Translations under genes and position numbers: made by a program
The notes under the pieces: model-generated
Seen by the model: the letters and a program-made list of their open reading frames with translations, nothing else
Told to the model about the DNA's origin: nothing
Databases searched by the model: none
Assembly: GCA_050183505.1 (NCBI GenBank)
Contig: JBFXBG010000099.1
Span: 1 to 14,718 of the forward strand
Reading direction: 5' to 3'
DNA from: Gemmatimonadales bacterium
Lineage (GTDB): Bacteria; Gemmatimonadota; Gemmatimonadetes; Gemmatimonadales; GWC2-71-9
DNA length: 14,718 bases
Part shown: piece by piece, positions 1 through 14,261 of the stretch
How the letters are laid out: each line of letters begins with the position of its first letter
How positions within the stretch are numbered: the first letter of the stretch is position 1

Positions 1-1005
1 GGCCGCCTTGGGGAAGCAGGAATTGTCCCGCGGGTCAGGCAGGATCCCCGGGAGCGGGTTCAGCTCGACCACCATCGGGGCGCCGTCGGCGTCGCAGCGG
101 ACATCGACCCGGCACCAGTCGCGGCAATCCAGCGCGCGGTAGGCGGCGAGGGCGGCGGCCTCGATGCGGCGCGCCTGGGTCTCCGGCACCCGCGCAGGGC
201 ACTCGAAGATCTGGAGCGGATGCTCGATGGTGTCCCAGAGCCACTTCGCCTCGTACCCGTAGATCGGGGGCGCCCCGGAAGGCAGGTCGCCAAAGTCCAT
301 GCCGACGATCGGCAGGCAGCGGGCCCGGTCCCCGTTCCCCAGGATCGCCACGGTGTATTCCGGTCCCGGGAGGTAGGTCTCGACCAGGACCGGCTCGTGG
401 TAGGTCTCCAGCAGGTAGCCGACCTGCTGTTCGAGCTGCTTCCGGTCGCGGCAGAGGCTCCGGACCGAGACACCCTTCCCGGACCCCTCAAAGGCCGGCT
501 TGGCGAACAGCGGGAAGGGCAGGGAACAGGTCCTGGCCTGCTCAACCGAGGCAGCCAGGATAAACGGCGCGGTCGGCACACCCCGCACCTGGAGTACCTC
601 CTTGGCCCGGCCCTTGTGCAGGGCGAGGGCGAGCGTGAGCGGATCGGACCCGGTATAGGGGATCCCGAAGAACTCGCAGATCGCCGGGACATGCCCTTCC
701 CGGTTCACCCCGAAGAGTCCCTCGGCAACGTTGAACACCAGATCGGGCCGGGCCGCCTCGAGCTTCATCGGGAACCCGGTGTCCGCCTCGAGCCGGATGA
801 CTTCACCCAGCGGCTGGAGCGCCCGCTCGACCGCGTCGATGGTGGAAGGCTCATCCCACTCGGCGTACAGATCCGGCTGCTCCAGGTCGGACCGGAGCGA
901 GCGGGAAGGGTTGATGTTGTTTGAGGGAGACTCTAGAACCACGCCGGCAGAGGGTGCCGGCGTAAGGGGCTTCAGGTTGAAAGCGAGTCCTATTCGAACG
1001 CTCAA
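1..1005 (-). CDS. D-alanine--D-alanine ligase family ATP-grasp protein (Ddl-like paralog). Partial: C-terminus runs off the window start. Probable TTG start at 1003-1005.
   Basis: Hand translation of the minus strand, in a frame absent from the ORF track because it is incomplete, gives SVRIGLAFNLK...AEWDEPSTIDAVERAL...GIPYTGSDPLTLALALHKGRAKEVL...PLFAKPAFEGSGKGVSV...EPVLVETYLPGPEYTVAILG...YEAKW...FECPA...AYRALDCRDWCRVDV...VVELNPLPG. These are canonical Ddl/ATP-grasp motifs. An in-frame TGA lies just upstream of the TTG. A GAGGA sits 4 nt before the TTG. Confidence 0.75.
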   Translation of the reverse strand, partial: MSVRIGLAFNLKPLTPAPSAGVVLESPSNNINPSRSLRSDLEQPDLYAEWDEPSTIDAVERALQPLGEVIRLEADTGFPMKLEAARPDLVFNVAEGLFGVNREGHVPAICEFFGIPYTGSDPLTLALALHKGRAKEVLQVRGVPTAPFILAASVEQARTCSLPFPLFAKPAFEGSGKGVSVRSLCRDRKQLEQQVGYLLETYHEPVLVETYLPGPEYTVAILGNGDRARCLPIVGMDFGDLPSGAPPIYGYEAKWLWDTIEHPLQIFECPARVPETQARRIEAAALAAYRALDCRDWCRVDVRCDADGAPMVVELNPLPGILPDPRDNSCFPKAA

Positions 1006-1177
1006 ACGATCCTCATCGACGGGTCACCTCGACGCGCGAAGCTAACGACCTGCGTGAGTCACCGCTCTAAAGTAAGAAATGTACGACCGACGAGCAATAG
1101 ATTTTTTCGGATTCTTGGCACGAAATTTCAAACGGAAGGACCGATCGGGGGGAAGCCGGATGGATGGAAGGCCCGCG
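1006..1177 (-). promoter_or_regulatory. Relatively AT-rich spacer between the folA stop and the Ddl-like start. Probable promoter/leader for the ligase gene.
   Basis: Locally low G+C (ctctaaagtaagaaatgtacgaccgacgagcaatagattttttcggattcttggcacgaaatttcaaacgg). Minus-strand TTGAAA...(17)...GAAAAA and TTGCTC...(17)...TACTTT are weak sigma70-like candidates. None is convincing. Confidence 0.3.
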
Positions 1178-1213
1178 TCAGCCTTCCGTCTTTCCATCCT
1201 TCCGTCGTTCCAC
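1166..1213. other. Hairpin GGAAGGC-N8-GCCTTCC enclosing the folA stop codon, followed by CTTCCGTC-type tandem octamers within the folA 3' coding end
   Basis: ggatggatggaaggcccgcgtcagccttccgtctttccatccttccgtcgttccacc. The folA stop (tca at 1178-1180) lies in the loop. Confidence 0.35.
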
Positions 1214-1693
1214 CCGCTCATAGGTCCGGAAGGTGAACGAATGCTCGTGCCGTTCGTCCGCCGGGTGGAAGCGCTCGGCGGTCAGGACCCAGTCGGCAGG
1301 TTCGAAGTCGGGGAAGGTGGTATCGCCCGGGACCCGGGCGTGCACGACGGTGAGCTCCAGCCGGTCGGCCACCGGCAGGGCGGCACGGTACAGCTCGCCG
1401 CCGCCCAGGACGAAGACCAGCTCGGCCGGCCGGGCCAGCGCCAGGGCAGCGGGAAGGTCCCGGGCCACCTCGACCCCGGCGGGATGGAACCGGGGGTTGC
1501 GGGAAACCACGATGCACCGGCGCTCGGGAAGCGGCTTGCCCACCGACTGCCAGGTCTTCCGGCCCATGATCACGGTGTGGCCCGTGGTCATGGCCTTGAA
1601 CCGCCGCAGGTCGTCCGGGAGGTGCCAGGGCAGGTCGTTCTCCCGGCCGATCACCCCGTTCTCGGCCACCGCGGCGACCAGGCTGACGATCAT
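1178..1693 (-). CDS. folA: Dihydrofolate reductase
   Basis: 171 aa. [48 protein letters not shown]...LGGGELY matches the DHFR signature region. Overlaps thyA by 4 nt (ATGA), the classic thyA-folA arrangement. Confidence 0.95.
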
Positions 1694-2484
1694 ACCGCGA
1701 TGGCGGCGGGGATCCGGGGGTGGGGCGAGTAGTTCTCCAGGGTGAAGTCCTCGAACTGGAAATCGAACAGGGACGTCACCCCCGGATTGAGCCGCAGGGT
1801 GGGCAGGGGGCGGGGATCCCGGGTCAACTGCAGCCGGGCCGCCTCGAGGTGGTTCTGATAGAGGTGGGCATCCCCGAAGGTATGGATGAACTCACCCGGC
1901 TCGAGCCCGCTCACCTGGGCCACCATCATGGTCAGGAGCGAGTAGGAGGCGATGTTGAACGGAACGCCCAGGAATACATCGGCGCTCCGCTGATACAACT
2001 GGCAGGAGAGGCGGCCGTCGGCAACGTAGAACTGGAAGAGGGCATGGCAGGGAGCCAGCGCCATCGCGGGGATCTCGGCGACGTTCCAGGCGCTGACGAT
2101 AAGCCGCCGGCTGACGGGGTCGGTCCGGATCTGGTCGAGGACCAGCCTGATCTGATCGATGTGCCGGCCATCGGGCGCGGGCCAGGAACGCCACTGCCGG
2201 CCGTAGACCGGACCCAGGTCGCCCGACTCATCCGCCCATTCATCCCAGATCGTCACGCCGTGATCGTTGAGATACCGGACGTTGGTATCCCCCTTGAGGA
2301 ACCACAGCAGCTCGTAGATGATCGACTTGAGATGGAGCTTCTTGGTGGTGACCAGCGGGAATCCCCGGGCCAGATCGAACCGCATCTGGTGGCCGAATAC
2401 GCTCAGGGTCCCCGTCCCGGTACGGTCGGCCCTGGGCCGGCCCTGATCCAGGATGTGGCGCATGAGGGAGAGGTACTGGCGCAT
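1690..2484 (-). CDS. thyA: Thymidylate synthase
   Basis: 264 aa. [85 protein letters not shown] is near-identical in motif content to ThyA, including the active-site PCH. Confidence 0.97.
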
Positions 2485-2521
2485 GGGACTAATCTAAGGC
2501 GATGCCGGGGAATTGCAGTAT

Positions 2522-2666
2522 GGGATGATTGGGTGATTGGATGATTGGGGATTGGATGATTTGGTAGACCGCGGCCTTCCGCGAGGACTGCGCACCTCGC
2601 CAGCGTGCAAACCATGACCAATCATCCAATCCCCAATCATCCAATCACCCAATTCCAAATCATCCC
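2522..2666. repeat. Intercistronic inverted-repeat element A (TGATTGGA/GGATTGG octamer type). Arms about 2522-2564 and 2618-2666, roughly 90% complementary. A 53-nt centre contains the mini-hairpin GCGAGG-N8-CCTCGC.
   Basis: Read directly. Left arm gggatgattgggtgattggatgattggggattggatgatttgg. Right arm ccaatcatccaatccccaatcatccaatcacccaattccaaatcatccc. The right arm contains the oxidase stop codon. The left arm ends about 37 nt before the thyA ATG. Confidence 0.85.
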
Positions 2667-4291
2667 TTGTCCTCTCCCGCCAACCCCAGCCGGTCCGTTC
2701 GGTAGCCGCCTCTCTTCTCGATCTCCCGCAGGGCAGCCGCGATGTCGTCCGGAATCGGGACGCTCCGGATCCCGGCCTTGAGGTCCGAAACCGGTTCCCG
2801 GGCGTCGGGCAGCATGATCCCCGGGTTGAAGATCCCGGCCGGATCGAAGGCGTCCTTCACCCGGCGGAACAGGCCCATCATCTCCGGCCCGTAGATCCCC
2901 TCCAGATACCTGGCCCGGAGACGGCCGGTGCCATGCTCTCCGGACGGCACCCCGCCGAGGCCGGCCACCAGGCGGGTGACCGAGTCCAGCAGGCGGGCGG
3001 CGTCGTCTTCCCATCCGGGTCGAGTGATATCCGGCAGGATGTTCACGTGGACGTTGCCGTCTCCGGCGTGTCCGAAGATCACGACCGGTATCTCCAGCTC
3101 CGCCGCCGCCTGGCGGACCCCGGCGATGTACTCACCGGTGCGCTGGACCGGGACGCAGCCGTCTTCGATGACCTGAAGCGAGCGTCGGTCCGGCGGGAGA
3201 TCGGCGATGATCGGGCTCGCGGCGTGGCGCAGAGCCCAGAGGCGGCGTTCCTCCTCCGGGGTGATGGCCGTTTCGACGTCGCTCGCCAGGGTGCGCAGCC
3301 GTCGGACGGCGTCACCCACGACTCCCCGGATGGTCCGTGGGTCGGACCCTTCGAACTCGACCAGGAGAATCACCTGACCCGGCAGGCCGGCCACCTCCGC
3401 GGCATGGCCGGGTGAGGCACGGACCAGGTCCAGGAAGCTGCGGTCGAGCAGTTCAAGGGCGGAAGGGCCGAGCGGCAGCAGCGCCTCGACCGCCTCGGTC
3501 AGATCGTCGAGCCGGGCCAGAGACACACGAAGGCCGGCGCGGACTTCGGGGACCCGATCCAGCCGCCATTCGACCTCGGTGACGAAGCCCAGGGTTCCCT
3601 CGGCCCCGATCACCAGGTCGATCAGGTCCCCCGATGCCAGGTATTCCCCCAGAGCATAGCCCGAGGAGTTCTTGCGTACCCGGGGGGTGCGCTGTGCGAC
3701 GAGGGACCGGCCGGCCTGAATGAACGGGTCGGCTTCCGCGAACCGCGCCGTTGCCCCGGAGGCGGGCACCGGCTCGCCCCGGGCCAGTCGGATGGTCTCG
3801 GCGTCGGCGGTCACGAGGGTAAGCGCCGTGACCCACCTGCGCACGCTGCCGTACTTGACGCTGCGGGCACCGGCCGCGTTGGTCGAAACGGCGCCGCCGG
3901 CCGTCGCAAAGGCGCTGCTGGAAGGATCCGGTGGGAGGCGAAGGCCGTCGCGTCCGGCGGCGGTGTTGAGGTCCGCCAGGCGGATGCCGGGGGAGGTGGC
4001 CGCGGAGCGGCGGGCCGGGTCGACGCGCAGCCGGGGGCCGTCCATGGCGGTCAGATCGACCATGACGCCGCCGCCGATATTGTCGCCCGGCATCGCACTG
4101 CCGGCGCCGCGGGGAATCAGCTGTTTGCCCGCCCGGCCTGCCCAGCCGGTCAGGACCAGTACGTCGCTGGTGTCGGCCGGGACGGCGACGGCTTCGGGCA
4201 CCACCCGGTAGATCCCGCCGCCTTCGGCGTAAGCGGCGCGTGCCCGCAGGTCTGTCCGGAACGGGCCGCGGAACCCGGGTGGTGAGGTCAT
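2660..4291 (-). CDS. FAD-linked oxidase, GlcD / D-lactate dehydrogenase family (FAD-binding PCMH domain plus C-terminal oxidase domain)
   Basis: Motifs PRGAGS..GGGV (FAD-binding) and GEHGTG near the C-terminus. Preferred start is ATG at 4289-4291 (MTSPPGF...). It is preceded by the GAAAGGTAAG leader motif shared with other starts in the window. The ORF-track start, GTG at 4378, would add an R/G-rich low-complexity extension overlapping the upstream gene by 32 nt. Confidence 0.85.
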   Translation of the reverse strand: MTSPPGFRGPFRTDLRARAAYAEGGGIYRVVPEAVAVPADTSDVLVLTGWAGRAGKQLIPRGAGSAMPGDNIGGGVMVDLTAMDGPRLRVDPARRSAATSPGIRLADLNTAAGRDGLRLPPDPSSSAFATAGGAVSTNAAGARSVKYGSVRRWVTALTLVTADAETIRLARGEPVPASGATARFAEADPFIQAGRSLVAQRTPRVRKNSSGYALGEYLASGDLIDLVIGAEGTLGFVTEVEWRLDRVPEVRAGLRVSLARLDDLTEAVEALLPLGPSALELLDRSFLDLVRASPGHAAEVAGLPGQVILLVEFEGSDPRTIRGVVGDAVRRLRTLASDVETAITPEEERRLWALRHAASPIIADLPPDRRSLQVIEDGCVPVQRTGEYIAGVRQAAAELEIPVVIFGHAGDGNVHVNILPDITRPGWEDDAARLLDSVTRLVAGLGGVPSGEHGTGRLRARYLEGIYGPEMMGLFRRVKDAFDPAGIFNPGIMLPDAREPVSDLKAGIRSVPIPDDIAAALREIEKRGGYRTDRLGLAGEDKG

Positions 4292-4346: not shown

Positions 4347-4892
4347 CTACCTCGCTCCGGTCTCTCCGTACTCCTCACCCAGCCGCTTGAGAATCTGAGT
4401 CAGCTTCAGGGCCACGGGATGATCGGGAGGGAGCGGCCGGTCCAGTTCGCGGCCGGGCAGGGAGGGATCAGCCAGAAGGCGGTAGACGCCTTCGAGCGTG
4501 ACGATACTGTGGCCCGCCTGGGCCGGGTCGATCCAGGCCCGGACACGGACAACCCTCTGGCCCAGGGGGCGGGCGGTGGTCCGGGCATAGCCGGTGGTAT
4601 CGAACCAGGGAGTCTCGATGTACCCGTCCCGGGTCACGACCTTCTCCACCGGAATGCTGTCGGCCTTGAGCGCATCGGCCAGGGTCGTGGTGGCCGCGGC
4701 GATGGTCAGGTGAACCGGCAGCTGCGTCGCCGCCGGCAACGGCTCGAACGCCGGCCGGGACGTGTACGGCTGACACGCGAGAAGAAGGAGGAGCGGAAGG
4801 ATGCGCCGGAAAGGCAGACGGACCCCGGTGCCCGTCCTGGAGGGGGGGGCTTTCCGCCTTTCCGCCTTTCCGTCCTCCCGCCTAGTCCTCAT
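4347..4892 (-). CDS. Putative lipoprotein with a twin-arginine-like signal: long charged n-region, FRRILPLLLLLAC, lipobox LLAC
   Basis: 181 aa. ATG at 4890-4892. The RR motif is followed by a hydrophobic stretch and a lipobox Cys. The mature part has no motif I recognise. The N-terminal coding region contains a C8 tract and three tandem GCGGAAAG octamers, as read on the minus strand. Confidence 0.65.
   Translation of the reverse strand: MRTRREDGKAERRKAPPSRTGTGVRLPFRRILPLLLLLACQPYTSRPAFEPLPAATQLPVHLTIAAATTTLADALKADSIPVEKVVTRDGYIETPWFDTTGYARTTARPLGQRVVRVRAWIDPAQAGHSIVTLEGVYRLLADPSLPGRELDRPLPPDHPVALKLTQILKRLGEEYGETGAR
4842..4882. repeat. G8 homopolymer (4842-4849) followed by tandem octamers CTTTCCGC x3 plus one degenerate copy (4850-4882)
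   Basis: aggggggggctttccgcctttccgcctttccgtcctcccgcc. On the minus strand it lies in the first 15 codons of the lipoprotein ORF (K A P P S ... RREDGKAERRKA), directly after the DUF2231 stop. Confidence 0.8.
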
Positions 4893-5568: not shown

Positions 5569-5606
5569 GGAATCGAACTCCGATCAGGTGTTGAGAGACG
5601 ATTAGT

Positions 5607-5729
5607 GTATTGGATGATTGGAGGATTGGATGATTGGATGTTTGACCGATCTCATCGTGTGGGAGCGCCCACCGGTGAGCCCGAATCATCTCCCGATCAT
5701 CCAATCCCCAGTCCTCCGATCACTGATCC
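5607..5729. repeat. Intercistronic inverted-repeat element B (ATGATTGG/GGATTGG type). Arms about 5607-5645 and 5683-5729.
   Basis: gtattggatgattggaggattggatgattggatg ... gaatcatctcccgatcatccaatccccagtcctccgatcactgatcc. It sits between the hbd stop (5731) and the DUF2231 start (5568). Confidence 0.8.
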
Positions 5730-5730
5730 A

Positions 5731-6618
5731 CTAGAGGCCCAGGTCCACCGGGGCCGGGGGATTCTGGGAATAGTCGTAGAACCCCTTGCCGCTCTTGCGG
5801 CCGAAGAGGCCCGCCAGGTACATCCGCTTGAGCAGCGGCGGAGGAGCGTAACGGGATTCCCGGTATTCCGCAAACATGATCTCGGCGATCTTGTAGGTCG
5901 TGTCGTTGCCCACGAAATCGAGCAGGGTAAACGGCCCCATGGGGTAGCCGCAGCCGAGCTTCATGCCGTTGTCGATGTCGACAATCGAACCGACGCCGTG
6001 TTCCAGTGCCCGGATGGCGTCCAGCAGGTAGGGGACCAGCAGCAGGTTCACGATGAACCCGGAGTTGTCCTTGGCGGCCACGGCCTGCTTTCCGAGTCCC
6101 CGGGCGAACTTCATCGCGCGATCGAAGGTCTCCGGCGTGGTGGTCACGGTCCGGACCACTTCCACCAGTTGCATCAGGGGCACCGGGTTGAAGAAGTGCA
6201 GCCCGACGAACCGATCGGGCCGTCTGGTTGAGGCGGCCATGGCCGCGATCGTAAGGCTCGACGTGTTGGAGGCGAAGATCGTATGGACCGGGCACATGGC
6301 GTCGAGCTGCTTCCAGAGGTCGTTCTTGAGCTCGAGGTCTTCGGTGATCGCCTCGATGATGATGTCGCAGTCCTTCAGGGCGCCGACATCGGTCACGAAA
6401 CTCAGCCGCCCCAGCGTGGCGTCCTTGTCGGCCGCCTGGAGTTTGCCCTTTTCGACGAACTTCTCCAGTGATTTGACGATGCCGGCCTTGCCCTTGTCGA
6501 GCGGGGCCTGCGCCACTTCCCGCACGATAGTGGTATGTCCCGCAGCGGCGGCGACCTGGGCAATGCCGCTGCCCATCAGGCCGCAACCGAGAACGCCGAC
6601 ACTCTTGATATCTTGCAT
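5731..6618 (-). CDS. hbd: 3-hydroxybutyryl-CoA / 3-hydroxyacyl-CoA dehydrogenase (NAD-binding)
   Basis: 295 aa. N-terminal Rossmann motif VGVLGCGLMGSGIA. The remainder is typical of the 3HCDH N- and C-domains (..IIEAITEDLELK...FFNPVPLMQLVEVV..). The other minus frame, 5720..6586, is a shadow. Confidence 0.95.
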   Translation of the reverse strand: MQDIKSVGVLGCGLMGSGIAQVAAAAGHTTIVREVAQAPLDKGKAGIVKSLEKFVEKGKLQAADKDATLGRLSFVTDVGALKDCDIIIEAITEDLELKNDLWKQLDAMCPVHTIFASNTSSLTIAAMAASTRRPDRFVGLHFFNPVPLMQLVEVVRTVTTTPETFDRAMKFARGLGKQAVAAKDNSGFIVNLLLVPYLLDAIRALEHGVGSIVDIDNGMKLGCGYPMGPFTLLDFVGNDTTYKIAEIMFAEYRESRYAPPPLLKRMYLAGLFGRKSGKGFYDYSQNPPAPVDLGL

Positions 6619-6619
6619 G

Positions 6620-6728
6620 AAAAGAACTCCGATGCTGAGGGTAAGGGTCAGGGGTCAGAAGGGGGCGTGGAGGCTGCTGCGCCCGGCCGTCCTGATGCCT
6701 GATCGCCGGTTCCTGATCCCCGGTTCGA
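6620..6728. repeat. Purine-rich/pyrimidine-rich imperfect inverted repeat G (GTAAGGG/GTCAGGG units against CCTGAT units) between the hypothetical-protein stop and the hbd start
   Basis: catgaaaagaactccgatgctgagggtaagggtcaggggtcagaagggggcg ... ccgtcctgatgcctgatcgccggttcctgatcccc. Complementarity is weaker than in elements A-D. Confidence 0.5.
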
Positions 6729-7560: not shown

Positions 7561-7702
7561 AAAAGCGAGTAAGGGGTAAGAAGTGAGAAGCAAGAAGGGG
7601 GGAACGCCGCGGTGCGGGGTCGGGGGCCGATCTCCAGCCGTCTCCTCCGTTCACCGGTTCCGGACCCCGGCTACTTCACCCCCCCTTCTTCTCCGACTTC
7701 TC
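7561..7702. repeat. Purine-rich/pyrimidine-rich inverted repeat F (GTAAGAAG/GTGAGAAG units). Left arm 7561-7602. Right arm about 7674-7702, inside the last codons of the SPFH gene.
   Basis: aaaagcgagtaaggggtaagaagtgagaagcaagaagggggg against cttcacccccccttcttctccgacttctc. The centre carries the short palindromes ccgcggtgcgg and ccggttccgg. Confidence 0.55.
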
Positions 7703-8533
7703 GGGAACCCGGAACTGGGGCAGCGCGAGCGACGCGTCCGGGGGTGAGAGTTTGGCCGGCTCCCCCGCCTGTTCCGGGCCGCCGGCCCGGCCTTCCATGG
7801 CCTTGATGAACGGCTTGAACAGTTCGATCGGAATCGGAAATATCGTGGTCGAGTTGTTCTCCGCCGCGATCTCGGTCACCGTCTGCAGGTAGCGCAGCTG
7901 GATGGCGCTCGGCTCGCGGGCGAGAGTATGCGCCGCCTCCGCCAGCGTCTGGGAGGCCTGCAGTTCCCCCTGGGCCGCGATGACCTTGGCGCGGCGCTCC
8001 CGCTCGGCTTCCGCCTGCCGGGCCATGGCGCGCTTCATTTCGGTCGGCAGGTCGACGTCCTTCACCTCGACCGCGGAAACCTCGATGCCCCAGGCGTCGG
8101 TGCGCTCGTCGATGATCCGTTTCAGGATGCCGTTGATCTTCTCCCGGTCGGCCAGCAGCTCGTCCAGCTCCACTTCACCCAGGACCGAGCGAAGGGTGGT
8201 CTGGGCCAGCTGGCTGGTGGCATAGCGGTAGTCTTCAATTTCGATGATCGCTTTTCCGGGCTCGCTCACCTTCATGTACAGGACGGCGTTCACCTTGACC
8301 GAGACGTTGTCCCGCGTGATCACGTCCTGCGGCGGGATGTCCAGCGCCATGATCCGCAGGCCCACCCGGCGCATGTGGGCGAATCCGGCGGGCACGAACA
8401 CCAACCCGGGGCCCTTGGTCCCCCAGAAGCGGCCCAGAAAGAAGGTGACGCCCCGTTCATACTGCTTGATGATCCGCAGGCTGGCGAAGGAGTAGGCCAC
8501 CGCGCCGGCCAGAAGGGCAAGCATGACTTCCAT
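7676..8533 (-). CDS. SPFH / Band-7 domain protein (stomatin/prohibitin/HflKC family, QmcA/YbbK-like)
   Basis: 285 aa. N-terminal TM segment, then [16 protein letters not shown].., [23 protein letters not shown]..., and a coiled-coil [20 protein letters not shown]. This is typical SPFH architecture. A GGGGAGTTTCC leader lies 8 nt before the ATG. Confidence 0.93.
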
Positions 8534-8545
8534 AGGAAACTCCCC

Positions 8546-8639
8546 GGATTGAGGGATTGCGGATTGCGGGATCGAGAGACCGGGATCGCGAAGCCGGGCA
8601 ATCCGCGGAATCCCTCAATCCCCCGATCCCTCAATCCCC
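8546..8639. repeat. Intercistronic inverted-repeat element C (GGATTGAG/GGATTGCG octamer type), nearly contiguous arms
   Basis: ggattgagggattgcggattgcgggatcgagagaccgggatcgcg aag ccgggcaatccgcggaatccctcaatcccccgatccctcaatcccc. The right arm contains the thiolase stop codon. The left arm ends 12 nt before the SPFH ATG. Confidence 0.8.
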
Positions 8640-9839: not shown

Positions 9840-9863
9840 TGTATTCTGTGGCAAGAGTTTAGA

Positions 9864-9882
9864 CGCGTTCAGAACGAACGCG
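9864..9882. promoter_or_regulatory. Perfect 7-bp inverted repeat CGCGTTC-N5-GAACGCG in the thiolase 5' region. Candidate operator.
   Basis: acgcgttcagaacgaacgcg lies 10-28 nt upstream of the TTG/ATG of the thiolase gene. A G8 tract (9897-9904) lies a further 15 nt upstream. Confidence 0.3.
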
Positions 9883-9951
9883 AAATATGCCCGGAAGGGG
9901 GGGGCGATTCACGGAAACCGGTCTGGGGGTGCTGCGGGAGGGGAAGGGGAT

Positions 9952-9978
9952 CCGGCCGGCGGTTACCCCGCCGGCCGG
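9952..9978 (-). terminator. GC-rich perfect hairpin (11-bp stem CCGGCCGGCGG, loop TTACC) 10 nt downstream of the secreted-protein stop. Candidate intrinsic terminator or RNA-stabilising stem without a U-tract.
   Basis: ccggccggcgg ttacc ccgccggccgg read directly. It is followed by the thiolase upstream region, so it plausibly separates two transcription units. Confidence 0.5.
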
Positions 9979-9988
9979 ACCGGACCGC

Positions 9989-10405
9989 TTACTCGTGCGG
10001 TTCCTTGGGAACGGGCCGCTTCTCGTAGAGGGTCAGGGTTGCGGTGTTGCCGGCGGGGAAATCCCGCACCCGGATCTCGTACATGGCCGTTTCGTAGGGC
10101 CGGAGGTCCCAGAGGGTCCCGCCGGTGACCGAACTTCCGGGCACCGTGGTGTTCAGGTATGGCTGCTGAACCGAGCTCTTGACCGGCGACACGGTGAAAC
10201 GAACCCGGCCGTAGTTGGTTGACAGCCGGTACTGGTGGCCCTGAACGAGTTCCACCCGGAGGTATTCCCCACTGCCTCCGGTAAAGCTCTGGGCGATAAT
10301 CGGAACGTAGGTGCTGTCCTGAGAGGCCGCCGCGGCGTCCTTCTGGGCGGCGGCCGGTACCGCGATCAATGACGCAAACGCAAGTGTCGCAATGGCTTTC
10401 CGCAT
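9989..10405 (-). CDS. Small secreted protein of unknown function (Sec signal peptide MRKAIATLAFASLIAVPAAAQ, mature part about 117 aa)
   Basis: The strongest Shine-Dalgarno in the window is GGGGAGGT, 5 nt before the ATG. Noticeably more A/T-ending codons than neighbouring genes. A perfect 11-bp hairpin lies 10 nt after the stop. Confidence 0.8.
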   Translation of the reverse strand: MRKAIATLAFASLIAVPAAAQKDAAAASQDSTYVPIIAQSFTGGSGEYLRVELVQGHQYRLSTNYGRVRFTVSPVKSSVQQPYLNTTVPGSSVTGGTLWDLRPYETAMYEIRVRDFPAGNTATLTLYEKRPVPKEPHE

Positions 10406-11502: not shown

Positions 11503-11603
11503 TCAGTGAGAGGTGAGAAGGACCGGTCAATGGCATGCCGCGCTGGGCGGAGCGACAAGGGTCCGGCGATTCCTTCCCGCTCCTTCTGTCTCACTTCTCA
11601 CTG
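11485..11603. repeat. Purine-rich/pyrimidine-rich inverted repeat E (GTAAGAGG/GTGAGAGG/TGAGAAGG units) between the zinc-ribbon gene stop and the dehydrogenase start
   Basis: cagaagggtaagaggcattcagtgagaggtgagaaggaccgg ... ccggcgattccttcccgctccttctgtctcacttctcactg. The right arm includes the stop codon at 11598-11600. The left arm includes both candidate start codons. Confidence 0.6.
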
Positions 11604-12455
11604 CTCGATTGGGTGTCCACAGGTCACGCAGAACTGCCAGCCGAGTTCGACCTCGCTGTCGCATCCGGGGCACTTGATGGACGACTGACTCTCCCCGCAG
11701 TGGGGGCAGAACTTGATGTCGCGCCGGGTGGGCAGGGAGCCGCCGCAGAAGGGACAGCGGCCGGGCGTACGCGGGGGCGGGCTCTCGGCAATGCCGCCGG
11801 CCGGAGGGTCTTCCATGGCAACGGGCTCGATGGTGGCACGGGTCCAGCGCACGGAATCGAGTGAGTCGGCGTCGTCGCGGGCCTGGTTGTCGGCCGTCTC
11901 GTGTTCCGGCGGAGCGAAGGCGGTCTCGGGGTCGGGACCGAGGGCGAAGGCGAGTCGATCGGTCGCCAGGATCAGGCTGGTCCCGCCCAGTTGTTCCAGG
12001 ATCCTGAGATCGGGATTGGGGCTGCCGGCTTCCGTGGCGAACGCTTCCTGGATGTCGGCCGGATCGGTACGCACGAATTTCCCCTCTCCGGCGCACAGCC
12101 GGAGGACCAGCATGTCGTAGTCCTCATTGCTGGCCAGACCCAAGGCGCGCCGATTGGTCCGGTAGGGGACGATCGTCTCGATGATCTCGCCGATCGGAAC
12201 CGGCCGGTGCAGCCGGGCCGGATCGATCGCGATGAGATTGTCGACCAGCCGGCGGAAGAATCGCTCGAGGTCGGTCACGGGCCGTGAGGGAACGGGGAAT
12301 CGATCGGTCGCTGCAATTTCCACTTCCTCGGGGCGTCCAGCAAGCGCCCGGACGGAACCTGTCTCGGCCGGTGCCGGGGTGAACTCAGCGTGCCTCCGCC
12401 AGCGGCAGGCGCTCGCCGGCAGCGAGCCGATCGGCGAGGACGTCGAAGGCGGCAT
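11598..12455 (-). CDS. Hypothetical protein with a C-terminal double zinc ribbon (four CxxC pairs) and an uncharacterised N-terminal domain
   Basis: C-terminus CPFCGG..(14)..CPHCGE..(6)..CPGCDS..(9)..CVTCGH. The ORF-track start at 12455 overlaps rnhA by about 70 nt, with a low-complexity N-terminus. An in-frame GTG at 12321-12323 is a plausible alternative start. The true start is uncertain. Confidence 0.6.
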   Translation of the reverse strand: MPPSTSSPIGSLPASACRWRRHAEFTPAPAETGSVRALAGRPEEVEIAATDRFPVPSRPVTDLERFFRRLVDNLIAIDPARLHRPVPIGEIIETIVPYRTNRRALGLASNEDYDMLVLRLCAGEGKFVRTDPADIQEAFATEAGSPNPDLRILEQLGGTSLILATDRLAFALGPDPETAFAPPEHETADNQARDDADSLDSVRWTRATIEPVAMEDPPAGGIAESPPPRTPGRCPFCGGSLPTRRDIKFCPHCGESQSSIKCPGCDSEVELGWQFCVTCGHPIEQ

Positions 12456-13014
12456 CGGGATCGTACTGCAGGTATTTCCCCCGCTCCCGCTGTACCTCCA
12501 GCCAGGCCGCGAAGCCCGACCCCACCGGCCCGGCGGAACTCTCCTGCCGGCGGGCCGCCCCGACGGCCAGGCTGTCGGCGTATTCGTTCTTGGGATGCCC
12601 CGCGTGGCCCCGGACCCAGGTCCACTGCACGTCGTGGGACCGGGCCGCCTCCACCAGCCGCTGCCAGAGTTCCAGGTTCTCTATGGTGCCGCCCTTCCGG
12701 CGCCAGCCCCGGGCCTGCCACGAGGGTACCCACTCCCGGATCCCCTTGACCAGATACTCCGAGTCGGAGACCATCAGCACCCGGAGCCGCCGGCCCCGGG
12801 CTGCCAGCGTCTCGAGCGCCAGGGCCGCCCCCGAGAGCGCCATCCGGTTGTTGGTCGTGGCCGGGGAATGAAGGAAGAGGTCCCGCCGCTGAACGCCGCT
12901 CCGGGTACGCAGCTCGATCAGTGCGCCCGCCCCGCCGGGGTTTTCGCCCTCGCGGCCGTTGCCGAGACAGCTCTCGTCGAGGTGGAGGACAGCAATGGGA
13001 TGTTGGACGGACAT
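12385..13014 (-). CDS. rnhA: Ribonuclease HI, with a C-terminal extension of about 55 aa
   Basis: MSVQHPIAVLHLDESCLGNG..GAGALI..TTNNRMALSGAALALE..VSDSEYLVKGIREWVPSWQARGWRRKGG..ENLELWQRL..VQWTWVRGHAGHPKNEYADSLA matches RNase HI end to end, including the DEDD catalytic positions. Start taken at ATG 13012-13014. The track's TTG at 13068 only adds a translation of the repeat element. Confidence 0.9.
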   Translation of the reverse strand: MSVQHPIAVLHLDESCLGNGREGENPGGAGALIELRTRSGVQRRDLFLHSPATTNNRMALSGAALALETLAARGRRLRVLMVSDSEYLVKGIREWVPSWQARGWRRKGGTIENLELWQRLVEAARSHDVQWTWVRGHAGHPKNEYADSLAVGAARRQESSAGPVGSGFAAWLEVQRERGKYLQYDPDAAFDVLADRLAAGERLPLAEAR

Positions 13015-13094
13015 TGAGGGATTGAGGGATTGAAGGATCGAGGGATTCGGCCGACCGGGCTCCCTCAATCCCTCAATCTATCAATCCCTCAATC
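13013..13094. repeat. Intercistronic inverted-repeat element D (GGGATTGA x4 octamer type), wedged exactly between two genes
   Basis: cattgagggattgagggattgaaggatcgagggattcgg ccgaccggg ctccctcaatccctcaatctatcaatccctcaatcc. The left arm begins with the reverse complement of the rnhA ATG. The right arm contains the phosphoesterase stop codon (tca at 13089-13091). Confidence 0.85.
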
Positions 13095-14261
13095 CAAGTA
13101 CATCGCAAACCCCTCCACCGCCTCCCCATCTTCTCCGACCTCCAGCACGCCCAGCCGGGTCCGGCCGTCCCGGAGCAGGTCGATGCGCATGAAGCCGGCG
13201 CGCGCCGAAGCGTAGAGGGTGTAGTCGCGATAGCCCGCCGGCCCCTCGTGTCCGAAGATGCCCGCGCCGCTCACCAGCTGGTAATGGACCCCGTCGAGCT
13301 TCAACACCTGCAGGTTGTGGTCGTGACCTGAAGCGTAGACCAGCGGCCGGTAGATCCGGAAGACCTGCTCCAGGCCGTCCCGGAGTTCCTGGTAGAGCGG
13401 GCCGGAGACATCCTGATTGGTGGCGCCGCCCTTGCGGAGGACCTTGTCGTACGATCCCACGATGGGCAGCGGGATCCAGAGCCAGGGGGCCAGCCGCCGG
13501 AGCGGGAAAAGGTGGGCCGTGAGCCCGTAGTAGCCGCCGTGTTCCGCCACGCTTTCCAGCGGGTGGTGGCCGGCGACGATGACAACCCGGTCACCGGCGT
13601 TGGCGAGCGCCGCCGCGAGGGAGTCGGCGATCTGATCGGGCGTGTCCGTGGGGCAGCCCGATCCGCCCACCGGCTTGGCGAACTCGTGGACCCACCACTG
13701 GGTGTCGAGGAAGACGAGCCGGAGACGCGGGCCCGGATCCCGCACCACCGGCCCGGGGCAGCCGCCGGCCGGGTACATCCGGACCAGCGGCGCCCCGACG
13801 CTGTCGATGAAGGCCGATTGCCGCCGGATGGCGTTCCAGCCGTCGCGGCCCATGCGTCCCCAGTCGTGGTTGCCGGGGATGAAGACGGTCGGAGTGCCGG
13901 TGCCGATTCCGACCGCGATCTGCGCCAGCAGCCTCCCGGAGGCCTCGGCGTAATCCTTCGCCTCGGGGGCCGGCAGCCCCGACGGGTAGAGGTTGTCGCC
14001 CAGAAAGACAATCAGGCGCCGGGTGGGAGCCGTCGAGGCGAGTCGCGCCAGGGCGCGAAGGACCGGCTCATCCGGGCCGGGTTCCCCGGCATCCCCGATG
14101 AGAAACACCGAGGTCTCGATCGCGGAATCTTCCGGAACCGGGACGAGCGATGGCGCCGGCCGCTGCGGGCCGCAGGCCGCGGCCCAGAGGCCGGCGAGCG
14201 CGACCGCCTGCCACCGGAATCCGCGGCGGCGGTTCAGCGCCACCGGTAGACCGTGAGCCAC
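13089..14261 (-). CDS. Calcineurin-like metallophosphoesterase, probable lipoprotein
   Basis: Metallophosphatase motifs GDAGEPG, GDNLY, GNHDW, GHHP and GHDH. N-terminal signal with a ...ALAGLWAAAC lipobox-like Cys. GTG start at 14261, or GTG at 14243, which would give a cleaner signal peptide. Confidence 0.88.
   Translation of the reverse strand: MAHGLPVALNRRRGFRWQAVALAGLWAAACGPQRPAPSLVPVPEDSAIETSVFLIGDAGEPGPDEPVLRALARLASTAPTRRLIVFLGDNLYPSGLPAPEAKDYAEASGRLLAQIAVGIGTGTPTVFIPGNHDWGRMGRDGWNAIRRQSAFIDSVGAPLVRMYPAGGCPGPVVRDPGPRLRLVFLDTQWWVHEFAKPVGGSGCPTDTPDQIADSLAAALANAGDRVVIVAGHHPLESVAEHGGYYGLTAHLFPLRRLAPWLWIPLPIVGSYDKVLRKGGATNQDVSGPLYQELRDGLEQVFRIYRPLVYASGHDHNLQVLKLDGVHYQLVSGAGIFGHEGPAGYRDYTLYASARAGFMRIDLLRDGRTRLGVLEVGEDGEAVEGFAMYLD

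Follow-up and report, generated by a model that had tools for sequence, protein, structure and literature searches.

Paired arrays of short G-rich repeats were described in Xanthomonas (GGGAATC) and Nostoc (GGGGA(C/T)T) by Rehm et al. in 2015 (PMC4692102). Each Xanthomonas genome holds 70 to 75 convergent inverted pairs of these heptamers, which lie close to the 5' neighboring open reading frame (ORF) whatever its orientation: the G-rich strand overlaps the stop codon or follows it by 0 to 50 bp, or it is the non-coding strand just upstream of an ORF (PMC4692102). Between 65% and 70% of the repeats are located between co-oriented ORFs, 16% between convergent and 7 to 8% between divergent ones, which is near the background of intergenic types save for a depletion between divergent genes. 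Their length varies strongly between Xcc and Xac, and the corresponding oligonucleotides form G-quadruplexes (G4) in vitro (PMC4692102). Here, we analyzed a palindrome, element D, located between a metallophosphoesterase gene and rnhA in a stretch of 14,718 nt (hereafter the window), which is one whole contig (JBFXBG010000099.1) of a metagenome-assembled genome (MAG) of an uncultured Gemmatimonadales bacterium. We place D among these known, functionally unexplained paired repeats as a new member.

Like the repeats of Rehm et al., the window arrays are intergenic tandem units (period 8, in 4 to 6 copies, at D and at three further elements named E, C and A; heptamers at a fifth junction, ZnRib>IsoDH), form convergent inverted pairs and have their G-rich strand adjoining or overlapping the upstream stop codon, at seven junctions. 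The same junction also keeps its repeat while length and sequence vary between relatives, here the window and the contig L171 described below. Unlike those repeats, the window units are mostly octamers (GGATTGAG, GGATGATT), accompanied by GTGAGAA and others, so that several families coexist in one genome, and most of the arms have no canonical G4 motif, as opposed to four or more G3 tracts and a preference for four units in the published arrays. The host also differs, being an uncultured Gemmatimonadales lineage, and the D octamer is found in metagenome contigs of 31 to 71% GC.

Three other described systems resemble D in part. Repetitive extragenic palindromes (REPs) and bacterial interspersed mosaic elements (BIMEs) of proteobacteria are abundant imperfect intergenic palindromes found after stop codons, where the neighboring genes are convergent or co-oriented. 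Their transcripts form stem-loops, for which mRNA 3'-end protection, termination and a role in DNA supercoiling have been proposed (PMC3733652, PMC12306157). REPs are 20- to 40-nt palindromes of unique sequence with a GTAG or CGTC tag, whereas the window arms are tandem arrays of 30 to 50 nt without either tag, and a strict REP identity was rejected on this ground; among the relatives, GTAG-containing units occur only in the contig L003. REPs are associated with the RAYT transposase. Mycobacterial interspersed repetitive units (MIRUs) are located inside operons and their ends coincide with the flanking stop and start codons (PMC12548453). They are direct repeats of 40 to 100 bp with a small ORF overlapping the downstream start by 4 nt, in contrast to D, a palindrome of 8-nt units without bridging ORF. 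Finally, TAACTGA heptamers precede start codons in Beggiatoaceae, cyanobacteria and Bacteroidetes, and a role in translation has been suggested for them (PMC4679880). As in the window, these are short tandem repeats directly before starts in settings poor in canonical ribosome-binding sites; however, they almost always form direct arrays, have another unit and show no relation to an upstream stop, whereas the window arrays are inverted pairs.

Anatomy and stability of element D

The minus strand carries all identifiable genes of the window, and D separates a gene with a Metallophos domain (1.1e-8) from one with an RNase_H domain (4.4e-29), rnhA, encoding RNase HI. The element spans positions 13013 to 13095 and consists of two inverted arrays of the octamer GGATTGAG. 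A repeat search returned an inverted repeat with 33-nt arms (13013-13045 and 13061-13093), 88% complementary around a loop of 15 nt, and Tandem Repeats Finder reported an array of ATTGAGGG at 13013-13047 and another of TCCCTCAA at 13061-13095, both with period 8 and 4.4 copies. In mRNA sense, the 5' arm starts with GGAUUGAGGG, and the junction reads UAC UUG GAU UGA GGG AUU. An initial annotation of this DNA had stated that the upstream arm includes the phosphoesterase stop codon and that the downstream arm ends in the rnhA AUG, and our analysis bore out both placements (Table 1). The C terminus ending at this stop (YLD*) agrees with those of orthologs (YLD* or YLE*), and no ORF bridges D in the phosphoesterase frame. 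As for rnhA, the ATG at 13014 was also chosen by an independent gene call on a near-identical contig (209 aa) and puts the catalytic DESC motif 12 residues from the N terminus. This start has no Shine-Dalgarno (SD)-like motif, a single G is present from -25 to -1, and the spacer between stop and start measures 74 nt. An in-frame TTG at 13068, within the 5' arm, would add 18 residues to the protein by reading through loop and 3' arm; a mechanical ORF list gives this longer rnhA (12385-13068), a likely source of misannotation.

The minus-strand mRNA is predicted to fold into a stem of about 35 bp with a minimum free energy (MFE) of -58.8 kcal/mol (z = -8.71), and none of 200 dinucleotide shuffles was as stable, so that the predicted stability is far beyond chance. 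The stem consists of 19 and 18 consecutive pairs flanking a 2-nt internal loop and runs directly into the rnhA coding sequence.

Related palindromes at six further junctions

Along the minus strand, the genes are in this order: an SdiA-regulated-domain protein, the metallophosphoesterase (14261-13089), rnhA (13014-12385), a zinc-ribbon protein (ZnRib), an isocitrate/isopropylmalate-type dehydrogenase (IsoDH), a 138-aa ORF (sm138), a thiolase, a Band-7 protein (Band7), a 276-aa protein (hyp276), a 3-hydroxyacyl-CoA dehydrogenase (3HCDH), DUF2231, a putative lipoprotein (hyp181), an FAD oxidase, thyA and folA. The genes flanking repeat elements are all co-oriented, with short spacers. When all spacers were compared in mRNA sense, D and six further junctions were found to share one plan within 14.7 kb, namely a C-free G/A/T stretch of 7- to 8-nt units that begins on the upstream stop or immediately next to it, followed by a GC-rich center and a reverse-complementary, G-free C/T/A stretch (Table 1). 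C-free and G-free thus describe the two arms better than the purine-rich and CU-rich of the initial annotation.

Table 1. Repeat elements of the window and the stop and start codons next to them; X>Y denotes the junction between the upstream gene X and the downstream gene Y
Feature	Coordinates	Strand	Units and upstream stop	Downstream start
D 5' arm (mRNA sense)	13061-13095	-	4.4 copies of GGAUUGAG; C-free; stops in all three frames	
D apical region	13048-13060	-	GC-rich GCCCGGUCGGCCG; 3-bp mini-stem in MFE structure	
D 3' arm (mRNA sense)	13013-13047	-	4.4 copies of UCCCUCAA-type units; one G only	continues into rnhA AUG
Metallophosphoesterase stop TGA	13091-13089	-	made by first repeat unit of 5' arm (TTG GAT TGA)	
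rnhA start ATG	13014-13012	-		terminates 3' arm (...CAAUCCCUCAAUG)
ZnRib>IsoDH palindrome	11504-11603	-	GUGAGAA/UCUCAC units; stop TGA 11600-11598 in first unit	3' arm ~19 nt before ATG 11484
E (thiolase>Band7)	8546-8639	-	octamer as in D; stop TGA 8633-8631 in first unit	3' arm 12-18 nt before ATG 8533; SD-like GGGGAG and ATG both outside stem
Band7>hyp276 palindrome	7575-7705	-	GAGAAGAAGGGGGGG (coding 3' end + TGA) pairs with CCCCCCUUCUU..CUUCUC; stop TGA 7678-7676 at 5' arm	3' arm ends ~27 nt before ATG 7559
hyp276>3HCDH spacer	6640-6728	-	C-poor GAUCAGG-type after stop, G-poor CUGACCC-type before start; weak pairing, z ~0	
C (3HCDH>DUF2231)	5605-5731	-	GGAUGAUU-type octamers; stop TAG 5733-5731 just before 5' arm	3' arm ends ~40 nt before DUF2231 ATG 5568
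DUF2231>hyp181 palindrome	4800-4881	-	(GGCGGAAA)3 units; begins directly after stop TAG 4884-4882	within hyp181 N-terminal coding region
A (FAD-oxidase>thyA)	2521-2668	-	arms 34-39 nt, 92-100% complementary; GGAUGAUU/UGGGUGAU units; stop TGA 2662-2660 in arm	3' arm ends 36-43 nt before thyA ATG 2484
Contrast hairpin	9949-9981	-	short, GC-rich (CCGGCCGGCGG/CCGCCGGCCGG), conventional; 3' of 138-aa ORF stop; no tandem repeats	

The arms belong to several unit families: D and E are built of GGATTGAG, A and C of GGATGATT/TGGGTGAT, ZnRib>IsoDH of GTGAGAA, Band7>hyp276 of GAAGAAGGGGGG and DUF2231>hyp181 of GGCGGAAA. In a cross-complementarity matrix, the best partner of each 5' arm was its own 3' arm or one of the same family. 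Stem stability was very uneven, with z-scores of -8.7 for A and about -8.5 to -8.7 for D, of -2.3 to -3.8 for E, ZnRib>IsoDH and C, and of about 0 at two junctions. The 5' arms of the window hold stop codons in two or three frames.

The claim that the geometry of D recurs elsewhere held for the stop side, at the six further junctions, and failed on the start side, where the 3' arms end 12 to 43 nt before the start codon. The string GAGAAGUCGGAGAAGAAGGGGGGG, given as an example of a GGAG-like arm, is in fact the coding 3' end of the Band7 gene. An IsoDH start abutting the 3' arm (ATG 11502) was rejected as an annotation artefact: L171 is without this upstream ATG, the N termini of orthologs agree with ATG 11484, and all orthologs start at its equivalent. 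In the case of hyp181, the only canonical start is ATG 4892, which overlaps the DUF2231 stop by 11 nt and leaves the palindrome within the coding region. This protein resembles a lipoprotein (LLLLAC lipobox), and the (GGCGGAAA)3 palindrome supplies the codons of its K/R-rich N-region.

A DNA-level structure, that is, a G4 or cruciform affecting transcription, replication or genome stability, has been proposed for the Xanthomonas and Nostoc repeats (PMC4692102). For the window we consider it very unlikely. It would fit the 5' arm of E (8612-8639), the only one of the hairpin 5' arms with a canonical quadruplex motif (G3+N1-7, four tracts), the G4 formed in vitro by the related published repeats (PMC4692102) and mismatches that are strand symmetric. 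However, the arms of D, A and C and the GTGAGAA arms lack four short-looped G3 tracts, and G4 was rejected as the common denominator for this reason. Moreover, the unit families differ and yet are all complementary, which points to pairing rather than to G4.

Further candidate identities were considered, most of which were rejected. A single mobile element with unique sequence does not fit arms that belong to at least three unit families and have no internal sequence in common; D and E, as well as A and C, share units, not unique internal sequence. [quoted passage not shown] An intrinsic (U-tract) terminator was discarded since a consensus scan found 7 sites against 6.3 expected from shuffles. 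None of these sites corresponds to an entire repeat palindrome, although one of 5 bp coincides in part with the outer end of the E 3' arm. A sigma-70 promoter scan of the window gave nothing above shuffles, and Rfam at a permissive threshold returned no family, only far-sub-threshold miRNA-precursor models of the kind matched by generic long hairpins. Searching the literature for literal octamer-array sequences gave no matches.

Turnover and persistence among close relatives

The sole near-identical twin of the window is a 7.9-kb contig in GCA_050248135.1, with 4 mismatches and 0 within the repeats. Homologs of the phosphoesterase, self aside, were at most 55% identical in a protein search and at most 51% in a scan of genome contigs. 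A search with the dehydrogenase led to the Logan contigs L171 to L173, which are 91 to 94% identical to the window in coding DNA (about 7% divergence). At the four junctions that were compared, L171 has arrays where the window has them, but of other unit types and lengths.

Upstream of rnhA, L171 carries UCCAAUCACAAAUCCUCCAAUCAUCCAAUUACC, followed by 11 nt and the AUG. This is an A/C-type and not a D-type array, and its predicted duplex is much stronger with the 5' arm of window element A (-40.2 kcal/mol) than with that of D (-18.0 kcal/mol). The expectation that relatives would keep arms overlapping stop and start was therefore not confirmed at this junction. The contigs L171 and L172 are independent Logan assemblies, and both end within the rnhA-upstream repeat (positions 1 to 43 in each). 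At the thiolase>Band7 junction of L171, the stop is TAG and a single nucleotide separates it from a 5' arm of the GAUUGGAU type, with a 3' arm altered to match: the cognate duplexes reach -57.9 and -45.1 kcal/mol, against -32.8 and -38.7 kcal/mol for the non-cognate combinations. At ZnRib>IsoDH, L171 has retained the outer arms and misses 49 nt of the middle.

This last junction could be followed further. GTGAGAA/TCTCAC arrays are present there in the window, in L171 and in L047 (IsoDH 75% identical at the protein level), where they pair poorly. In L174 (IsoDH 80%), all that is kept is a G-free (CCCGCAUU)x3 array preceding the AUG, and L002 has a 30-nt spacer without repeats. The phosphoesterase>rnhA adjacency was found only in the lineage of the window: no such junction exists in L002, L047 or L174, where one or two genes intervene or rnhA is inverted. 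Because the closest loci lack this junction, D has no ortholog other than the truncated contigs L171 and L172. Judged from the sequences compared, placement on the exact codons is not conserved; what persists is a C-poor stretch after the stop and a G-poor one before the start, and usually their pairing as well.

A few further loci were noted along the way. In L002, the rnhA-upstream spacer (15040-15290) is 290 nt long. Within it, octamers arrayed as (GGCCCTCT)n and repeats of CTCTGAC extend to a likely TTG or GTG start, with no obvious G-rich partner. In two other Gemmatimonadales MAGs, palindromes start at a stop codon: L003 (1-132) has GGGAGTA units, which contain GTAG, around a GC-rich central hairpin, and L022 (3726-3810) has GTGAGAA units.

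Distribution and polarity in metagenomes

Scanning metagenomes with the pattern GATTGRRKGATTGRRKGATTG gave at least 120 stretches, and 80 contigs with octamer arrays, ranging from 31 to 71% GC, were analyzed. A repeat made of a G-arm followed by a C-arm reads G-arm first on both strands, so its polarity is a property of the repeat itself, independent of the direction of the genes. Strict pairs in the window were G-first in four cases and C-first in none. The same bias was found in 86 metagenome arrays, where the reverse-complement partner was downstream (G-first) in 14 and upstream (C-first) in 1, and at high-GC metagenome loci, where skew pairs were G-first 11 times and C-first once. As far as crude gene calls allow, ORFs entering these arrays stop at the TGA of the first GATTGA unit in seven cases, of the second in one and of the third in one, a bias for which we calculated a binomial P of about 0.008 under random phase.

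About a third of the paired metagenome copies lie between convergent genes, according to crude flank-based orientation calls that were checked against ORF lists for L121 and L091 only. In L121, an ORF of 427 aa (19-1302, plus strand) ends at one foot of the stem and an ORF of 276 aa (1463-2293, minus strand) at the other; L091 likewise has a convergent junction with a stop codon at each arm. Another contig, L114 (4.3 kb), contains four G-first palindromes between 700 and 3600, including an element of the GGGAGAGGG...GGGTGAGGG type that is present at 741-819 and, inverted, at 3477-3557, and a super-palindrome of about 420 nt (1937-2360) built of two octamer hairpins.

Convergent copies also bear on the second option of the initial annotation, RNA processing, by which the palindromes would be RNase III-type stems whose predicted cleavage would separate cistrons and, in D, free the rnhA initiation region. 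Such a stem would comprise at least about 20 bp of near-continuous double-stranded RNA. Stems of the length of D (19 + 18 bp) and A (34 to 39 bp) suit this enzyme, and co-oriented genes with short spacers would be an appropriate setting. However, the stems at several junctions are short or weak (z of about 0), relatives have lost the partner arm, and copies between convergent genes cannot separate cistrons. We regard this explanation as improbable.

A more serious question is whether the palindromes have any selected function. They might arise by replication slippage together with intra-strand template switching or gene conversion, or as small mobile elements, and accumulate where they do least harm, beside stop codons, with their orientation filtered only by what ORF ends tolerate. 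Several observations fit such an origin: turnover of units and array lengths is very rapid even among close relatives, the elements are patchy among Gemmatimonadales loci (L002 and L015 lack them), the precise geometry is not preserved, the mismatches carry no strand-specific wobble signal, and the arm that L171 has before rnhA is built of units like those at A and C in the window. The contexts of the published repeats are likewise near intergenic background, save for the divergent depletion (PMC4692102). On the other hand, the G-first polarity is near universal, convergent junctions included, arrays persist at one junction over deep divergence (window, L171 and L047), both arms change together with pairing kept, and D shows by eye none of the duplications or terminal repeats of a transposon. 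Lack of function is in our view the main rival of the explanation that we prefer, possible although unlikely.

Predicted start-site occlusion and the proposed translational coupling

The initial annotation had proposed that folding buries the initiation region and that a ribosome terminating on the upstream gene melts the stem, so that these junctions would represent structure-enforced translational coupling. Coupling by RNA unfolding is an established mechanism, known from genes VII/IX of phage f1 and from coat and lysis of MS2 (reviewed in PMC12548453). D resembles these cases in that its initiation region is predicted to be buried in a stem and that ribosomes completing the upstream gene get to the opposite strand of this stem. 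It differs from them by its stem of about 35 bp and its 74-nt spacer, as the known cases have short or negative spacing or a masking strand inside the upstream ORF, and by a predicted relief that is partial, not conserved and not common to the sister elements.

In a purely thermodynamic model, we took occlusion as the ensemble cost of unpairing positions -20 to +12 around the start codon, with or without a ribosome blocking -15 to +14 on the upstream stop. In D, opening the rnhA site was predicted to cost 36.4 kcal/mol in the free RNA and 16.9 kcal/mol with a ribosome on the stop, a relief of 19.5 kcal/mol. At the other eight junctions the relief was between -2.7 and +5.0 kcal/mol, with seven of them within -2.7 to +2.6; the value of +5.0 came from IsoDH>sm138, which has a 32-nt spacer and no palindrome. 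Opening costs at these junctions were 5 to 20 kcal/mol and independent of the stop-side arm. Relief is absent there either because the stem does not include the start or because the 3' arm, owing to its repeated units, can re-pair in a shifted register. Hence, burial of the initiation region is predicted for D and fails as a general account of the junctions. Melting by a terminating ribosome fares similarly: it is predicted in part for D, with a relief of about zero at the others, and since about 17 kcal/mol would be left in D, it would not fully expose the site even there. Coupling-like relief is sporadic also among relatives: the window shows it in D, L171 at Band7>hyp276 (9.9 kcal/mol), and L047 and L174 at none of their junctions.

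The start-side arm had further been called anti-SD-like. SD-like motifs were detected at 5 of the 12 starts and, where present (e.g., at Band7, 3HCDH and DUF2231), lie 3' of the stem; the remaining 7 starts have none, and rnhA, hyp276 and IsoDH combine this lack with G-poor leaders. Because the motifs are absent or located beyond the stems, an anti-SD arm has nothing to act on, and this interpretation finds no support.

Coupling may nevertheless be considered for D alone, where we judge its chances to be small. The model, which as a whole we find unlikely too, would take the palindrome as a selected occlusion device, in which the G-free arm is an SD-independent landing site masked by the stop-overlapping G-rich arm; ribosomes terminating upstream would open the base of the stem and downstream initiation would follow. 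Stop and start of D are indeed opposite each other at the stem base, the opening cost drops as described, and rnhA, hyp276 and IsoDH start without SD-like motifs behind G-poor leaders. G-poor arrays also adjoin start codons in relatives despite differing sequence (L171, L174 and L002), a second such geometry with a relief of 9.9 kcal/mol exists in L171, and the underlying mechanism has precedent (PMC12548453). However, relief is close to zero at every other hairpin-bearing junction, the residual cost in D persists, the geometry is not kept at about 92% DNA identity (L171), and SD-like motifs are outside the stems. Moreover, little termination-reinitiation coupling is left once the spacer reaches about 20 nt (PMC10666635), as compared to 74 nt in D. 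As a general account of these junctions, coupling is contradicted by the near-zero relief elsewhere, by the hairpin located inside the downstream ORF at DUF2231>hyp181 and by the convergent copies, which cannot function in translational coupling.

A bolder version, to which we give little credence, would see in the paired arrays a widespread "stop-gated" intercistronic device of SD-poor bacteria, with a G-free, S1-type landing pad held in a long stem by the stop-rich G arm. As this stem would juxtapose the upstream stop and the downstream start, the terminating ribosome might then cross the base of the hairpin, as a prokaryotic analogue of ribosome shunting, or transiently unmask the pad. If this were true, the universal G-first polarity would be the signature of the device.

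A proposed stop-adjacent RNA stem-loop as the preferred explanation

We tentatively prefer to see D as one copy of a class of fast-evolving, paired short-tandem-repeat palindromes that would act as REP-like, stop-adjacent RNA stem-loops and whose orientation would be filtered by translation signals, although we hold this with less than even confidence. Starting from the observed anatomy, stability, polarity, rapid turnover and wide distribution, we infer that D is transcribed with its flanking genes, and likewise each functional step that follows. The transcript would fold into the stem-loop of about 35 bp and punctuate the mRNA as a barrier to 3' exonucleases, possibly also as a site of pausing, partial termination or cleavage by a double-strand RNase. 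Translation signals would limit the orientation: the C-free arm, with TGA or TAG in two or three frames, would end ORFs in its first unit, whereas the G-free arm would be tolerated beside a start codon as it has no SD-like or start-like strings. The two arms would change in concert and so stay complementary, either because pairing is selected for or by templated correction. That the D 3' arm touches the rnhA AUG would be an accident of this locus and transient in evolution, whose side effect may be a strong repression of rnhA translation that depends in part on upstream translation. The modeled stem accordingly predicts very low, partly upstream-dependent rnhA expression, a trait that is not conserved.

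Several points weigh against this stem-loop explanation. No U-tract follows the stems, and the terminator scan of the window was not above shuffles. The G-first polarity is opposite to that of canonical bidirectional terminators in other loci, and a pure stem-loop function does not explain it. In a sense-strand wobble test on nine hairpins, 21 G.U and 26 A.C mismatches were counted; with no G.U excess, there is no specific pointer to RNA over DNA structure or to selection for fine pairing. L174 keeps a single array, which suggests that pairing is dispensable. Finally, no function was found for the repeats of Rehm et al. either (PMC4692102).

Whatever their role, the palindromes are abundant, as one octamer pattern alone occurs in at least 120 metagenome stretches and the 14.7 kb of the window hold seven copies, and they obey a strict, unexplained orientation rule. 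A lineage with a palindrome at nearly every operon junction would be a good test bed for effects on mRNA ends or translation. There are practical consequences as well: the repeats supply stops and spurious starts that mislead gene callers (TTG 13068 and ATG 11502), and they break assemblies, as illustrated by L171 and L172.

Other features of the window

The contrast hairpin behind sm138 (Table 1) is followed by the thiolase gene, and a TATATT-like motif is located about 50 nt upstream of the thiolase ATG in three genomes (window 9855-9990, L002 20230-20290 and L047 10060-10125). The alignment of the thiolase-upstream regions is unconvincing as proof of an internal promoter, and hairpin and motif together only weakly suggest an internal terminator and promoter. 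Given this succession, the window is probably not a single transcript, a view that we hold loosely.

At the other end of the window, thyA (2484-1690) and folA (1693-1178) overlap by 4 nt (1690-1693), the canonical ATGA-type coupling geometry, with no hairpin. A short G-first hairpin, GGAAGGC-TGACGCGG-GCCTTCC (region 1160-1212), has the folA stop TGA (1180-1178) in its loop, and the 3' coding end of folA holds a period-8/16 repeat (1182-1212). A minus-strand gene in 1-1150, missing from the ORF list, runs off the window start; judged by eye from its translation, it is of the ATP-grasp/D-Ala-D-Ala-ligase type. Upstream of this truncated gene, positions 1050 to 1150 form the AT-richest stretch of the window (GC 0.47) and have a promoter-like look.

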